Source: Candidatus Babelota bacterium (GTDB taxonomy: Bacteria > Babelota > Babeliae > Babelales > UBA12411). Taken from it: a stretch of DNA of 64,000 nucleotides. Both the position numbers and the translations under genes were made by a program. The stretch lies in assembly GCA_003511165.1 (NCBI GenBank), contig DOJW01000004.1, positions 68,015 to 132,014 on the forward strand. Direction: 5' to 3'. The notes under the pieces were generated by a model that made no database searches, was not told the DNA's origin, and worked only from the letters and a program-made list of their open reading frames with translations. Shown in pieces: positions 482 to 46,820 of the stretch (its first letter is position 1; each line of letters starts with the position of its first letter).

Positions 482-2596
482 TTAGTAAAAAATAAATACT
501 GAAATTAAAAACATTATTAATAAAAACGCTGGCCAGAAAAACACTTTGACAAGCAAATTATTTTTATATGATATAAAAGCTATTTTATATTTCTGCGCAT
601 AAAAAATCATATCTACCAGTAACAAAACAATTACCAAATAAGGAATAATGTAAAAATATTCTAAATAAAATATGCCAGAGGGGAAAAATGATCTTCGAAG
701 AGCAGAATGCGCAAATATCAAACCAACAAAAATTCCAGATATTAAAGTTATATTCGTTATTATATTTTCTTTTCTTACAGCTAATAAATTTATAAATAAA
801 AGCAATAGAGAAACTAAAAGCGGTAAAAAATACATTATAAGAGGATCAACAATATTTCTTGTTGCCGAAATAGAAAAATCTAAAAGATATCTTCTAACAT
901 TTTGCTTTGGTTGCTCAACCCCAAGATTAGCTTTCAAATCAATAGGTTTAAACGAAAAATAACTTTTTTCTATATTCCATATTTGTGAAAAATCTTCGAC
1001 ATTAATTCCAGGTAATGATTGAGGATTAATAAACTGATATCCTTCTAAATCGGGAATAAACAAAATATTTTTATCTAAGGATGGATGATCAATCGTTAAC
1101 ACAATTTTATATTTATCTAAAGGATAAGCTACCGTCAAAGCCTGATCACTATCAAAAACTCCGTTAAATCTCCAAACTATCAATTCTTCTTTTGAATTTT
1201 TCTCAGTATGAATAATTCTTTTTTCATCGTATCTATCACACTCATTAATAATAAAATCACGTTGTATCTCCCGTCCGCTCAACAAAGGATATTTTTGCCA
1301 AACAAAACCACTAAGTTGAACATCATTTGTAGAAAAAGAAGATTCAATCGATCTTATTAAGATTCCTGTTTTAACTAAATAAAGTGGGGAATTATCTTTA
1401 ATTTCTTCTTTAGAAGATTTGATAACATTATCAATTGTGTTCTTATCCAAAACCACTATATTTTGTAAATTTTTTTCTTGACCGTATTTTCTTTGTATAT
1501 GCCACAGAGAGATAATTCCTACAATTAAAAGAATAGAGGCTAAAATAGAAGCAATAGACAGATTTAATAAACTTCCTAGATAACTTTTAGTTAAAATAAA
1601 AATTAAAAAAAACAAAAACAATATTAAAAATGCTATTAATAAAACCCTGTATTTTCTTAGAAAATCGTTATATTGAGACCATACTTCATCTTGAATAGCG
1701 ACAACACACAGTATCAAATTTGTTTGCGGAATAGGTTTATAATAAATAATCGCTTTTTGGCCTGTCTTTTCATTAACAAAAGAAGTTTTACCCTGCTTAT
1801 TTTTCAAAATCTCATAACCAACTCTTTCAAGATCTTTATTTTTTCGCTCTTTAGCAACATCAAAAATAGATTTATCATTTCTGTAATATTCCTCAATAGG
1901 ATGCGATGCAAACTTCCCATCAATTTCAGAAATGACAAATGCATATCCACGCTTACCAAGCGACAAATTATTTACCATTGAACGCACATTATCAAGTCTA
2001 TGCAAGGCAGAAATAGCACCAATTGGCTTAGCATCTTTTAGCGGATTTGGAGCATAAAGGGGTTCTCCATAAGCTATCACATGTCCCTTTATAGCTGTTC
2101 CCCAGTAAGGTTCTGTTAACGATGGACCAAAATTGATTGGATAATAATACCAACTTGTTATTCCCTTTTTTTTATCTCGAGGAAGAGTGTAATCGTATTG
2201 TATAGGTCGCGGCTCTATAAGATTATCTGATCGTATAATAAAAATTGAAAATCTATCTTTTTTTTCAAAAATACCCGGCTCATAAGCTAGTACAAGACCG
2301 TGCAAATCTTGATTTTTCTTAACAGTATCCTCAATCAAATTGTATAACTCTTTTTCGCTCAAAAGTTTTTTCTTATCGATTATTTGTCTAAAATCTGAAA
2401 CTAATTTTTTAAATTTTTGGAAATGATTACTAATATAATTAGTTGCATAATCCATCTCTTTGGAAATGCTCTTTTGCAAGTTGGTATCAATCTGTTTTTG
2501 CATCTTAAAAAATTGATAAACAAAAAATGTAAAAGCTATCAAACTTACAAATAAACAACCAAGTAAAAATTTAAAAATTAATTTTTTATAATTCAC
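482..2596 (-). CDS. Membrane protein: N-terminal double-Cache-like sensor domain fused to a pentameric ligand-gated ion channel (pLGIC/Cys-loop-like) module
   Basis: TM1 is at aa 6-28. The Cache-like region (aa ~40-305) has SWYYYPINFG, TEPYWG and GYAFVISEIDGKFASHP. A TM hairpin lies at aa 318-365. A beta-rich domain (aa ~403-580) has VKTGILIRSIES..FVWQKY, YPLDKYKIVLTI and IWNIEKSYFSFKP. Then come a pre-M1 Arg plus M1 Pro (ATRNIVDPLIMYFLPLL), M2 (ITNITLISGIFVGLIF), an M2-M3 stretch FPSGIFYLEYFYIIPYL, a very short M3-M4 loop and a C-terminal M4. The start is GTG, preceded by AAGGAAA. Confidence 0.6.
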   Translation of the reverse strand: MNYKKLIFKFLLGCLFVSLIAFTFFVYQFFKMQKQIDTNLQKSISKEMDYATNYISNHFQKFKKLVSDFRQIIDKKKLLSEKELYNLIEDTVKKNQDLHGLVLAYEPGIFEKKDRFSIFIIRSDNLIEPRPIQYDYTLPRDKKKGITSWYYYPINFGPSLTEPYWGTAIKGHVIAYGEPLYAPNPLKDAKPIGAISALHRLDNVRSMVNNLSLGKRGYAFVISEIDGKFASHPIEEYYRNDKSIFDVAKERKNKDLERVGYEILKNKQGKTSFVNEKTGQKAIIYYKPIPQTNLILCVVAIQDEVWSQYNDFLRKYRVLLIAFLILFLFFLIFILTKSYLGSLLNLSIASILASILLIVGIISLWHIQRKYGQEKNLQNIVVLDKNTIDNVIKSSKEEIKDNSPLYLVKTGILIRSIESSFSTNDVQLSGFVWQKYPLLSGREIQRDFIINECDRYDEKRIIHTEKNSKEELIVWRFNGVFDSDQALTVAYPLDKYKIVLTIDHPSLDKNILFIPDLEGYQFINPQSLPGINVEDFSQIWNIEKSYFSFKPIDLKANLGVEQPKQNVRRYLLDFSISATRNIVDPLIMYFLPLLVSLLLLFINLLAVRKENIITNITLISGIFVGLIFAHSALRRSFFPSGIFYLEYFYIIPYLVIVLLLVDMIFYAQKYKIAFISYKNNLLVKVFFWPAFLLIMFLISVFIFY

Positions 2597-26668: not shown

Positions 26669-26745
<77 letters not shown>

Positions 26746-29822: not shown

Positions 29823-29897
29823 GCGGGAATAGCTCAGTGGTAGAGCATTGCCTTCCCAAGGCAAGGGCCGCGGGTTCAACCCCCGTTTCCCGCTCCA
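29823..29897 (+). tRNA. tRNA-Gly (CCC)
   Basis: The 75-nt cloverleaf gcgggaa..ttgcc-ttCCCaa-ggcaa..gcggg-ttcaacc-cccgt-ttcccgc-t-cca. Confidence 0.95.
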
Positions 29898-29906
29898 AAA
29901 TTTTGT

Positions 29907-29935
29907 TTGACAACCGGATCTTTTAAAGATAAATT
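29907..29935 (+). promoter_or_regulatory. Sigma70-type promoter for the second tRNA-Gly
   Basis: TTGACA (29907-29912), a 17-nt spacer, then TAAATT (29930-29935), about 25 nt upstream of the tRNA 5' end. Confidence 0.45.
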
Positions 29936-29960
29936 TGGGACATCTTCTTTGAATTTTTAT

Positions 29961-30035
29961 GCGGGAATAGCTCAGTGGTAGAGCATTGCCTTGCCAAGGC
30001 AAGGGTCGCGGGTTCAAATCCCGTTTCCCGCTCCA
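29961..30035 (+). tRNA. tRNA-Gly (GCC)
   Basis: A 75-nt cloverleaf that differs from the CCC copy only at anticodon position 34, one variable-loop base and two T-loop bases. Confidence 0.95.
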
Positions 30036-46568: not shown

Positions 46569-46645
46569 GGGCGAATAGCTCAGCTGGTTAGAGCATCTGC
46601 CTTACAAGCAGGGGGTCACAGGTTCGAATCCTGTTTCGCCCACCA
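46569..46645 (+). tRNA. tRNA-Val (TAC)
   Basis: The 77-nt cloverleaf gggcgaa..tctgc-ctTACaa-gcagg..acagg-ttcgaat-cctgt-ttcgccc-a-cca. Confidence 0.95.
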
Positions 46646-46659
46646 AATTTAAAGTTTAT

Positions 46660-46735
46660 TCCTCGATAGCTCAGTTGGTAGAGCAAACGACTGTTAATCG
46701 TTGGGTCGCAGGTTCGAATCCTGCTCGAGGAGCCA
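46660..46735 (+). tRNA. tRNA-Asn (GTT)
   Basis: The 76-nt cloverleaf tcctcga..aacga-ctGTTaa-tcgtt..gcagg-ttcgaat-cctgc-tcgagga-g-cca. Confidence 0.95.
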
Positions 46736-46742
46736 TTTTTTT

Positions 46743-46820
46743 GGGGCTGTAGCTCAGTTTGGTTAGAGCGTCCGCCTGTCACGCGGAAGGTCGCGAGTTC
46801 GAGTCTCGTCAGCCCCGCCA
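46743..46820 (+). tRNA. tRNA-Asp (GTC)
   Basis: The 78-nt cloverleaf ggggctg..tccgc-ctGTCac-gcgga..gcgag-ttcgagt-ctcgt-cagcccc-g-cca. Confidence 0.95.

Follow-up and report, generated by a model that had tools for sequence, protein, structure and literature searches.

Does a single gene of Candidatus Babelota bacterium encode an ion channel that carries its own chemical sensor? The gene lies in a window of 64,000 nucleotides (assembly GCA_003511165.1, contig DOJW01000004.1, positions 68,015 to 132,014), which is the whole stretch of DNA that was analyzed. A sequence-only reading of the gene had proposed that its product joins a Cache-type sensor to a pentameric ligand-gated ion channel (pLGIC). 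Acetylcholine, GABA, glycine, and serotonin act on receptors of the pLGIC superfamily, and knowledge of how these are gated owes much to two or three bacterial homologues. Here we ask what each half of the protein is, how widely the arrangement is distributed, and which domain would gate the putative pore.

The Gene and the Topology of Its Product

The open reading frame begins with GTG in the ORF listing and is preceded by a Shine-Dalgarno-like sequence (Table 1). Its exact product is present in NCBI as a "hypothetical protein" from Candidatus Dependentiae/TM6. Because the identical 704-residue protein is called on 12 contigs, and because its architecture recurs in the family described below, the reading frame is not a chance occurrence. 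The Dependentiae bacterium that carries the gene is an obligate intracellular symbiont. Immediately downstream on the same strand is the start of a gene for an amine-oxidase-family lipoprotein, which on longer contigs is a 531-residue PF01593/PF13450 protein; it is a possible operon partner.

Hydropathy analysis revealed seven transmembrane (TM) segments (residues 3–32, 311–346, 338–369, 581–609, 610–634, 640–669, and 679–704), and the AF2 model contains helices at residues 2–75, 310–335, 343–371, 583–606, 609–636, 644–668, and 681–703. Together, these results bear out the order that had been read from the sequence, namely TM1, a Cache-like domain, a two-TM hairpin, a β-rich domain, and four TM helices. 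The β-rich domain is present as claimed but is larger than the approximately 180 residues first assigned to it (approximately 210). The M3–M4 loop is indeed very short (approximately 12 residues), with M4 ending at the C-terminus, and translation of the gene placed every motif that had been quoted where it was said to be (Table 1). The confidence of the full-length AF2 model (pLDDT 87.8, pTM 0.82) suggests that the Cache domain, the hairpin, and the channel module would be held in a defined arrangement.

Table 1. Features of the dCache–pLGIC gene, its product, and its surroundings (nucleotide positions are those of the window)
Feature	Nucleotides	Strand	Residues	Remarks and evidence
Whole CDS	482–2596	−	704 aa + stop codon	dCache–pLGIC fusion protein, 7 TM helices; ORF listing
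AGGA, Shine-Dalgarno-like	2602–2605	−		5 nt upstream of GTG start; sequence read
Downstream same-strand gene, start only	1–424	−		57-nt gap; lipoprotein-signal flavin amine-oxidase-family protein, cut by window edge; translation
TM1	2501–2590	−	3–32	Runs on into long Cache stalk helix; hydropathy, AF2 helix 2–75
Periplasmic double-Cache (dCache_1-type) sensor	1670–2500	−	33–309	Pfam, PDB phmmer, Foldseek
TM2–TM3 helical hairpin	1484–1669	−	310–371	Brings chain back to periplasm; hydropathy, AF2, family recurrence
pLGIC-type extracellular (periplasmic) domain	857–1483	−	372–580	N-terminal helix + ~10-strand β-sandwich; AF2, Foldseek, hhalign from β1 on
Pro-loop ("Cys-loop") YPLD	1115–1126	−	491–494	Aligned to GLIC YPFD and family A4 RYPLD; translation
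Pre-M1 R580	857–859	−	580	Expected salt-bridge partner of D494; aligned to GLIC R192
Four-helix channel domain	485–856	−	581–704	M1 583–606 (P592 kink), M2 609–636, M3 644–668, M4 681–703; AF2, Foldseek, HMMER/hhalign alignments through M1–M3/M4
M2, putative pore-lining helix	689–772	−	609–636	hhalign register versus A4/GlyR numbering
SWYYYPINFG			148–157	Translation
TEPYWG			161–166	Translation
GYAFVISEIDGKFASHP			217–233	Translation
VKTGIL...FVWQKY			408–436	Translation
IWNIEK...			539–551	Translation
ATRNIVDPLIMYFLPLL			578–594	Translation
ITNITLISGIFVGLIF			613–628	Translation
FPSGIFYLEYFY			638–649	Translation

The N-Terminal Half Is a Membrane-Anchored Double-Cache Domain

The prediction that the N-terminal domain adopts a Cache fold was confirmed by structure comparison: Foldseek matched it to 3lib (TM score 0.82, rmsd 2.7 Å) and also to 3li8, 3lic, and 9heh, and a phmmer search aligned residues 81–311 with 3li8 (E = 1.6e-9). 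Among Pfam models, the suggested dCache_1 profile did match the query (32.6 bits, E = 7.5e-8) but fell short of its 45-bit cut-off, MCP-like_PDC_1 scored 27.4 bits (cut-off [GA] 27), and Cache_3-Cache_2 matched with E = 3.5e-6. In the Pfam scan dCache_1 was matched in all 51 of the family members scanned, with a best E of 2.7e-21. The modeled stalk helix (residues 2–75), α/β lobes (81–307), and TM2 (310–335) reproduce the layout of a dCache domain set between TM helices. The same succession of TM1, long stalk helix, two PDC lobes, and TM2 is seen in the dCache_1 modules of chemoreceptors and histidine kinases (PctA and PctB; Methanosarcina mazei HK1s-Z2/Z3, PDB 3LI8/3LIB), but in the query the sensor leads into a third TM helix and then a channel module, where those proteins have a cytoplasmic HAMP, kinase, or MCP domain. 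A histidine-kinase or MCP-type receptor was rejected, as no member scanned has a cytoplasmic domain.

As to what the domain might bind, the AA_motif of amino-acid-sensing dCache_1AA domains is Y121-x4-R126-x-W128 ... Y144 ... D173 in PctA numbering (Gumerov et al. 2022). Of the AA_motif-type positions, Y136 and W149 are conserved, but the query, unlike PctA, lacks the amino-acid-binding Arg: the R126 equivalent, two residues before the Trp, is T147 in the query and T19/S9/Y9/N9 (percent) in the family, with no Arg. The AA_motif is thus absent from the query. The query's own Cache domain departs from the family in having L160 in place of a near-invariant Trp (94%) and in carrying an eight-residue insertion, and both features count against our principal explanation, a channel gated by its Cache domain.

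The C-Terminal Half Resembles pLGICs in Profile and in Fold

The sequence-only reading had counted a lack of pLGIC profile matches, combined with a different fold, as grounds for refutation, and with the Pfam models for pLGICs the first of these did occur. PF02931 and PF02932 were absent for the query even at E ≤ 10 and were found in none of 51 family members at E ≤ 1; likewise, when the query, its C-terminal half, and two relatives were scanned with Pfam and NCBIfam, no pLGIC model and no NCBIfam family was matched. The missed match is a limit of the sensitivity of the models, not a structural defining feature, and the relationship was recovered with profiles built from the family itself. All five matches of a three-sequence profile to the PDB were pLGICs, and a 36-sequence profile gave 76 matches, of which all 60 that were listed were GLIC or GLIC chimeras (best hmmsearch E = 1.8e-5). 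An hhalign comparison with a bona fide bacterial pLGIC family, A4, gave a probability of 97.3% (E = 2.3e-11, 265 columns), and A4 itself matches GLIC, GlyR, and GABA-A (E down to 3.4e-11). The family HMM also matches a Pfam-positive pLGIC that is encoded next door to one of the members (locus L024).

The AF2 model of the C-terminal module (pLDDT 85.7, pTM 0.79) begins with a single helix and continues with ten strands and four long helices, which is the β-sandwich and four-helix bundle that had been foreseen; both folds on which the sequence-only reading had staked its proposal, this one and the Cache fold, are present. The Foldseek check that it had suggested returned 725 PDB matches at E ≤ 1e-3, and the best 50 were all pLGICs aligned over their full length, with E of about 1e-13 and TM scores of 0.57–0.65. 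A chance resemblance of motifs was rejected because three independent methods agree in register.

Might the resemblance nevertheless be convergent or an artefact of modeling, the C-terminal half being an unrelated β-rich periplasmic domain followed by four TM helices? The low identity to solved pLGICs (just 12–18%), the high rmsd of many Foldseek matches (5–10 Å), and the lack of any match in curated libraries would fit such an explanation, but it would have to account for the agreement in register, over more than 260 residues, among the profile search of the PDB, the profile–profile alignment, and template-free AF2 modeling with Foldseek, as well as for the match of the family HMM to the Pfam-positive neighbor and for the conserved positions described below. 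We consider it very improbable. The evidence instead supports the view that the C-terminal half is a subunit of the pLGIC superfamily, though a very divergent one.

The closest comparison is with GLIC of Gloeobacter, the best sequence-profile match of the family, and ELIC of Erwinia/Dickeya. Shared with both are a β-sandwich extracellular domain (ECD) followed by M1–M4, an [F/Y]PxD Pro-loop without the Cys-loop cysteines, the pre-M1 Arg, the M1 Pro, and the very short M3–M4 loop. Unlike GLIC and ELIC, the query goes undetected by Pfam at its 12–18% identity, has a helix at the N-terminus of the ECD, and adds three TM helices and a dCache domain of approximately 280 residues ahead of the ECD.

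Signature Residues and the Pore Helix

To gauge the conservation of signature residues, we counted their frequencies over 146 homologues and took the superfamily positions from Table 1 of Jaiteh et al. (2016). Of the seven superfamily positions that are most conserved, this family keeps six. The alignments upheld the earlier assignments of the Pro-loop, whose motif lies at the β6–β7 loop tip (in percent, Y83/F16, P100, and D82/E8), the β9 Trp (W540, aligned to GLIC W160; W93), the pre-M1 Arg (R580; R88/K8), and the M1 Pro (P592, aligned to GLIC P204; P94), as well as, more tentatively, the "NITL" register of M2. By analogy in sequence, D494 and R580 would be expected to form a salt bridge. Family-specific conservation is strongest in the Pro-loop, at the upper end of M2, and where M3 begins, sites that correspond to the gating interface of pLGICs, and, unlike GLIC and ELIC, the family has invariants of its own (H630, R634, and YLEYFY).

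Two canonical features are not conserved, which counts against reading the module as a channel. A Pro in the M2–M3 loop is present in 88% of the superfamily and a basic residue at 0' in 79%. In the query P639 lies one position away from the aligned 23' Pro (family column A43/S16/V13), and 0' is N615, in a column that is V43/I17 in the family and is unlike the usual basic residue; in both respects the family differs from GLIC and ELIC.

In the hhalign register, M2 of the query has T617 at 2', G621 at 6', V624 at 9', F628 at 13', S631 at 16', and the invariant R634 at 19'. V624 fits the hydrophobic 9' position, which is F80/L15 in the family, and the overall pattern is like that of known channels: small or polar at 2' and 6', F or L at 9', hydrophobic at 13' and 16', and Arg at 19'. 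The alignment of HMMER to GLIC and that of hhalign to A4 place M2 three residues apart, and since M2 is also very hydrophobic, the lining of the pore and its selectivity are uncertain. We prefer the hhalign register, in which the residues at 2', 6', 9', and 19' have their canonical chemistry and the helix ends where it does in the AF2 model.

These features bear on a further explanation, according to which the protein would be a non-conducting receptor derived from a pLGIC, its pentameric scaffold relaying conformational changes in the Cache domain or ECD to a partner in the membrane or the cytoplasm, or doing no more than anchoring periplasmic binding domains. The unusual hydrophobicity of M2 (F in 80% of the family at 9' and F, L, or I at 13') would suit a scaffold of this kind, as would the unconserved 0' and M2–M3 positions and the failure of the Pfam channel models to find the family; in addition, the short M3–M4 loop carries conserved residues (Y677, N680, and K684) that might contact a partner. 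Yet the 9'–16' rings of ELIC and GLIC are hydrophobic too, conservation at the gating interface and of the M1 Pro kink is like that of functional channels, and neither a cytoplasmic domain in the members scanned nor a partner conserved across loci was found, only PBP and ABC genes in subsets. We judge a non-conducting receptor to be improbable.

A Large Family with Variable Sensors

Exhaustive HMMER searching is what brought the family to light: it is bacterial and unannotated, and it comprises at least 1,685 clusters at 50% identity, from many phyla. Members nearer to the consensus than the query include those of Ca. Electronema and of the Syntrophorhabdaceae chromosome OY762209. Word-indexed searching was weak for so divergent a family (two relatives with the single sequence, seven with a profile), and a scan of genome contigs with a three-sequence alignment was biased toward members carrying IFYLE[YT]FY. 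About 100 of the 150 best representatives have the same architecture, Cache and hairpin included, and others have two or three Cache units or are fused to, or neighbors of, periplasmic binding proteins (PBPs). No cytoplasmic output domain was found in nine architectural variants or in 51 full-length members. The extensions that follow M4 in some variants are periplasmic solute-binding domains, which fits a C-terminus that faces outward, as in pLGICs. Some members lie right next to PBP genes, or to a gene for a canonical pLGIC; over 41 loci, however, clustering of neighbors revealed no universal partner, yielding only the PBP/ABC genes in subsets, and the amine-oxidase neighbor of the query was absent from these loci.

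Some relatives have the same channel module and no Cache domain, such as P0002 (375 residues) and several representatives of 316–490 residues, and hence the channel module may have its gating input in the ECD. This is the chief alternative: a genuine pLGIC that responds to an orthosteric ligand, pH, or a divalent cation at the ECD, with the Cache domain in an accessory role, tuning kinetics, concentrating ligand, or supplying a second input. Strongly conserved ECD residues in β2 (W433–Q434) and β8–β9 (P515–D516...Y520...P529–G530) correspond to loops D and F of the pLGIC binding site, which speaks for such a channel, though the loop C region is variable and is modeled with low confidence at residues 564–566. 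Many of the short forms, moreover, sit on short contigs or follow a separate Cache ORF (loci L009 and L032), so truly Cache-less forms may be rarer than they appear, and the presence of the Cache–hairpin unit in about 100 of 150 representatives, in some cases in two or three copies, argues that it is the main sensory input. Precedent favors an accessory role: the N-terminal domain (NTD) of DeCLIC modulates gating and does not drive it, and the association of our family with PBP genes or domains recalls the view of Tasneem et al. that fused or operonic sensors pre-sense ligands that then bind the LBD. On balance we think a channel driven by its own ECD, with an accessory Cache domain, unlikely, although it is the strongest of the alternatives.

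A Proposed Mechanism of Gating

We conclude that the gene product is probably an inner-membrane channel subunit of the pLGIC superfamily, presumably homopentameric, with its own membrane-anchored double-Cache sensor. A periplasmic small molecule would bind to the Cache domain and would cause the stalk helix and TM2 to move, as in chemoreceptors and kinases, and/or bring about a Cache–ECD contact. The movement would be relayed through the TM2–TM3 hairpin, packed against the TM bundle of the channel, and would bias the conserved interface between the ECD and the TM domain (D494–R580, H630, R634, Y644, and E646) such that the M2-lined pore opens or closes. In this way a chemical signal would directly drive ions across the membrane or shift its potential, without passing through a cytoplasmic signaling domain. 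We infer that the subunits would assemble as pentamers and conduct ions with a given selectivity, and that the Cache domain, rather than the ECD, would receive the ligand, be coupled to the pore, and gate it directly, as the sequence-only reading had suggested. One consideration counts against a pentameric, Cache-gated channel: dCache domains usually signal as dimers, which is no simple fit to five-fold symmetry.

Relation to Known Systems

The fusion of Cache to a pLGIC is not in itself new. Bacterial and archaeal ART-LGICs fused to Cache/MCP-N domains were predicted in Methanosarcina, Cytophaga, and Microbulbifer from searches with animal LBD profiles, the extra domains lying between the signal peptide and the LBD (Tasneem, Iyer, Jakobsson & Aravind 2004; PMC549065). 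Those authors proposed that sensor domains, whether fused or encoded in the same operon, pre-sense ligands and allow allosteric control by multiple ligands (PMC549065). Compared by description, the ART-LGICs resemble our protein in having a Cache-type sensor N-terminal to an LBD and four TM helices in one polypeptide, and in being fused to periplasmic binding proteins or sharing operons with them. They differ in that TM1 and TM2 flank the query's Cache domain and another TM helix leads into the ECD, for seven in total. The layout of a signal peptide and four TM helices is not matched, as TM1 of the query is an anchor continuous with the stalk and helices 310–335 and 343–371 part the Cache domain from the ECD; in addition, standard profiles miss its channel module.

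The only NTD of a pLGIC characterized so far is that of DeCLIC, from Desulfofustis, which consists of two β-rich lobes that bind Ca2+ and join the ECD directly, without TM helices in between. DeCLIC, too, is prokaryotic and carries a large accessory domain in the periplasm, N-terminal to its ECD, but the N-terminal domain of the query is a dCache on its own TM pair and not a pair of DeCLIC-like lobes. A dCache domain is also linked to an ion channel in α2-δ of the voltage-gated Ca2+ channels of animals (PMC549065); there, however, α2-δ is a distinct auxiliary subunit and the channel belongs to an unrelated family, whereas here Cache and channel are one polypeptide. The literature searched yielded nothing relevant on pLGICs with extra TM helices or Cache anchors or on channels of Dependentiae. 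What looks new, then, is the hairpin-anchored topology, with the Cache domain on its own TM pair and seven TM helices per subunit, and the divergent clade that bears it, which the Pfam pLGIC models do not see.

Implications

Somewhat more tentatively, we suggest that these proteins may represent a large and unrecognized clade of pLGICs, spread over more than ten bacterial phyla with no fewer than 1,000 clusters at 50% identity, in which a TM1–dCache–TM2 sensor is wired through a third TM helix straight to a pentameric channel. If so, seven TM helices would be a first for a pLGIC subunit, and these proteins would offer a one-protein path from a periplasmic ligand to the membrane potential, with the movement of TM helices gating the pore instead of, or besides, orthosteric binding at the ECD. 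Such a clade would widen the prokaryotic pLGIC repertoire, and censuses based on PF02931 and PF02932 would miss it. It would also give a new handle on the allosteric coupling of a pore to additional TM helices and an accessory sensor, with parallels in the auxiliary subunits of animal channels.

To our knowledge the Dependentiae bacterium that carries the gene is not motile, so this protein would fall outside the classic "chemotaxis receptor" hypothesis for bacterial pLGICs. dCache is the most abundant extracellular sensor fold in bacteria, and a dCache domain tied directly to an electrical output would constitute a testable case of one-component bioelectric signaling in bacteria.

A Double-Cache Sensor in the N-Terminal Half

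Translation of the query gene recovered, at the claimed positions, all of the motifs on which the sequence-only reading had drawn. The protein has seven transmembrane (TM) segments as judged by hydropathy, and an identical protein, called on 12 contigs, is annotated as a "hypothetical protein" in Candidatus Dependentiae/TM6 MAGs. Its N-terminal half matched the Pfam models MCP-like_PDC_1 (27.4 bits, cut-off 27), dCache_1 (E 7.5e-8), and Cache_3-Cache_2 (E 3.5e-6), and a phmmer search of the PDB aligned residues 45-311 with 3LI8 (E 1.6e-9) and 3LIB (E 1.4e-7), both dCache sensors of Methanosarcina histidine kinases. In a full-length AF2 model (pLDDT 87.8, pTM 0.82) this half is composed of a helix spanning TM1 and the stalk (residues 2-75), a pair of alpha/beta lobes, and TM2, and Foldseek superimposed the model on 3LIB with a TM score of 0.82 (rmsd 2.7 Å). 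Because these four lines of evidence agree, we consider the dCache assignment secure, in keeping with the Cache-like domain proposed earlier.

The AA_motif of amino-acid-sensing dCache domains (Y121, R126, W128, Y144, and D173 in PctA numbering; PMC8915833) is absent from the query, which has T147 at the Arg-equivalent position, and Arg is not conserved there in the family alignment. In the W-x-E-P-Y pocket motif the query has L160, as against Trp in 94% of its relatives, and its Cache domain also carries a Lys-rich eight-residue insertion; from the alignment, these two features suggest that ligand specificity has been altered or relaxed within the lineage of Dependentiae.

A Divergent Module of the pLGIC Superfamily in the C-Terminal Half

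Neither Pfam nor NCBIfam has a model that matched the C-terminal half, even at E<=10. The Pfam matches that the sequence-only reading had called for were obtained for dCache and not for PF02931 or PF02932. A three-sequence profile retrieved five PDB entries, every one a pentameric ligand-gated ion channel (pLGIC); in these alignments YPLD lies opposite FPFD/YPFD, and both the Arg before M1 and the Pro of M1 are in register. A2, a 36-sequence profile of the query family, gave 76 PDB matches (best E 1.8e-5); all 60 of those listed are GLIC or GLIC chimeras, and the alignment to GLIC-type sequences is collinear from beta6 to M3. With hhalign, A2 aligned with A4 (probability 97.3%, E 2.3e-11) in 265 columns that extend from beta1 up to where M4 starts. 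A4 is a profile of bona fide bacterial pLGICs that is independent of A2 and was seeded with the Neur_chan_LBD-positive gene adjoining a family member at locus L024. A4 itself matches a GLIC-GlyR chimera (3.4e-11) and GABA-A beta3 (8e-8). Finally, a template-free AF2 model of residues 368-704 (pLDDT 85.7, pTM 0.79) has a single helix at its N-terminus, ten strands, and four long helices; Foldseek found 725 PDB matches to it at E<=1e-3, of which the best 50 are without exception pLGIC subunits, with alignments that run their full length (E ~1e-13, TM score 0.57-0.65). That the resemblance is spurious, as the silence of the curated models might be taken to mean, is therefore highly improbable: the PDB profile searches, hhalign, and AF2 with Foldseek agree with the earlier pLGIC reading of the distal half, and by profile and predicted structure we place the module in the superfamily as a divergent member.

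Residue frequencies over 146 family modules, at positions that Table 1 of Jaiteh et al. (PMC4795631) lists as most conserved in the superfamily, are given in the table with the family-specific invariants, which concentrate at pLGIC sites coupling binding to gating. In the hhalign register, M2 of the query has T617 (2'), G621 (6'), V624 (9'), F628 (13'), S631 (16'), and R634 (19'), and the family has S/A/G/T, A/G, F80/L15, F/L/I, I/V, and R100, respectively, a pattern that appears channel-like; the HMMER-to-GLIC register is shifted by three residues, and no clear charge-selectivity filter is apparent in M2 in these sequence registers. A non-conducting receptor or scaffold seems improbable to us; no cytoplasmic output domain was present in the variants or full-length members scanned.

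Positions of features in the window, the query protein, and family loci
Feature	Position	Strand	Remarks
Query CDS	482..2596	-	704 aa, GTG start (ORF listing)
AGGA motif	5 nt upstream of GTG		sequence read
Cache insertion and L160	~nt 2117-2179		residues 140-146 and 160
Amine-oxidase-family gene	1-424, cut by window edge	-	starts 57 nt downstream of channel gene
Its complete copy	L044 8173-9768		531 aa on longer contigs
tRNA genes (six)	26669-26742, 29823-30032, 46569-46817		three clustered in last
Pro-loop F/Y	Y491		family Y83/F16
Pro-loop Pro	P492		family P100
Pro-loop Asp	D494		family D82/E8
beta9 Trp	W540		family W93
Pre-M1 Arg	R580		family R88/K8
M1 Pro	P592		family P94
Basic 0'	N615 in query		unconserved in family
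M2-M3 Pro	P639 in query		unconserved in family
Invariants, beta2	W433-Q434		family-specific
Invariants, beta8-beta9 region	P515-D516, Y520, P529-G530		family-specific
Invariants, top of M2	H630, R634		family-specific
Invariants, start of M3	Y644, E646, F648		family-specific
Invariants, M4	K684, W688, P689		family-specific
Type-I periplasmic binding protein homologues	L020 5004-6185, L022 1238-2416, L023 3905-5086, L028 5043-6215		gammaproteobacterial MAGs
Tandem family paralogues	L007 2849-5023 and 5584-7257	one strand	724 and 557 aa, Ca. Anammoxibacter MAG
Cache-hairpin member	L024 2867-4999		Prolixibacteraceae MAG
Canonical pLGIC gene	L024 5009-6112		directly downstream of the Cache-hairpin member

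A Large Family of Cache-Bearing Relatives

When 1.84 billion cluster representatives were searched exhaustively with HMMER, 1,685 relatives were found at E<=1e-3, of which 1,012 reached E<=1e-30. About 100 of the best 150 representatives are 650-760 aa long and are built alike: TM1, a stretch of ~280 aa, a TM hairpin, a second stretch of ~210 aa, and four TM segments. dCache_1 was found in 51 of the 51 full-length members scanned, and PF02931 and PF02932 in none of them. Three proteins, P0005 (1036 aa), P0010 (1112 aa), and P0007 (1364 aa), have two or three tandem dCache and TM-hairpin units ahead of the channel module, with 9-11 predicted TM helices per subunit, and P0143 has N-terminal TPR repeats. 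Periplasmic solute-binding domains are fused behind M4 in P0066 (SBP_bac_5) and P0068 (Bmp plus ABC_sub_bind), which fits an outside-facing C-terminus. Some of the short forms are truncated by contig ends or have a separate Cache ORF ahead. Genome matches occur in Pseudomonadota, Desulfobacterota (including Ca. Electronema and Syntrophorhabdaceae), Acidobacteriota, Planctomycetota, Gemmatimonadota, Bacteroidota, Aminicenantes, Elusimicrobia, Verrucomicrobiota, and Myxococcota, and in a second Dependentiae genome.

Tasneem et al. 2004 (PMC549065) predicted bacterial and archaeal pLGICs fused to Cache and MCP-N domains, as well as fusions and operons of pLGICs with periplasmic binding proteins (PBPs), and so the Cache-pLGIC combination is an already known predicted architecture. 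Their proteins are described as a signal peptide, extra domains, ligand-binding domain, and four TM segments, whereas the query family has a TM hairpin between Cache and the extracellular domain (ECD) and seven TM segments in all. It differs further in a divergence so deep that the clade as a whole escapes curated pLGIC models, and in its size and broad distribution. Our literature searches found no account of Cache-anchored or extra-TM pLGIC forms. The earlier remark that no Cache-bearing pLGIC has been functionally characterized is consistent with a 2025 statement that DeCLIC is the only pLGIC with an N-terminal domain even partly characterized (PMC12664993). The canonical bacterial pLGIC profile also matched the recently solved PDB entry 9ftg (609-aa chain; [quoted passage not shown]), presumably another prokaryotic pLGIC of this N-terminally extended kind.

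Gene Neighborhoods

In the window (G+C ~30%), which holds no second copy, further Cache protein, or canonical pLGIC, the query gene and a gene for a HAD hydrolase are divergently oriented, and topA is nearby. No terminator-like site and no enrichment of promoter-like matches were found; tRNAs are the sole Rfam matches in the window at gathering threshold. The downstream neighbor of the query gene belongs to the flavin amine-oxidase family (PF01593, NAD_binding_8) and has a lipoprotein signal, MNLKDFGKLFLILFVIVLSAC. The two genes may share a transcript, and the presence of an extracytoplasmic amine oxidase next to a Cache sensor might hint at an amine ligand; since neighbor clustering of 41 other family loci lacks this gene, both the operon and its implication are speculative.

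Elsewhere, a Peripla_BP_6 homologue lies directly downstream in four gammaproteobacterial loci (Pfam-confirmed for L020 and L023); such PBP neighbors and fusions recall the association of PBPs with pLGICs predicted by Tasneem et al. 2004. At L024 the adjoining canonical pLGIC (Neur_chan_LBD, 26.9 bits, E 3.8e-6) could form hetero-oligomers or function as a pair with the family member. The ~366-aa family to which this canonical pLGIC belongs counts 305 relatives at E<=1e-5. Among the 120 listed, most have no precomputed Pfam match, and the family may form a second pLGIC group that is under-annotated.

A Proposed Mechanism

The analysis shows the folds, the topology, and the signature residues, and that the scanned members have no other output domain; whatever is dynamic in the following scheme is inferred. 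We think it probable that the protein is an ion channel, presumably homopentameric, in which each subunit joins a chemoreceptor-style TM1-dCache-TM2 sensor via TM3 to a pLGIC module. The module also has an ECD of its own, and a channel gated there, with Cache as a modulator, is possible but rather unlikely. For the Cache-gated channel, we infer that ligand would bind Cache and that the signal would pass through the hairpin, Cache-ECD contacts, or both, to the conserved interface between the ECD and the TM domain and then to the M2 gate, so that the output of the sensor would be ion flux.
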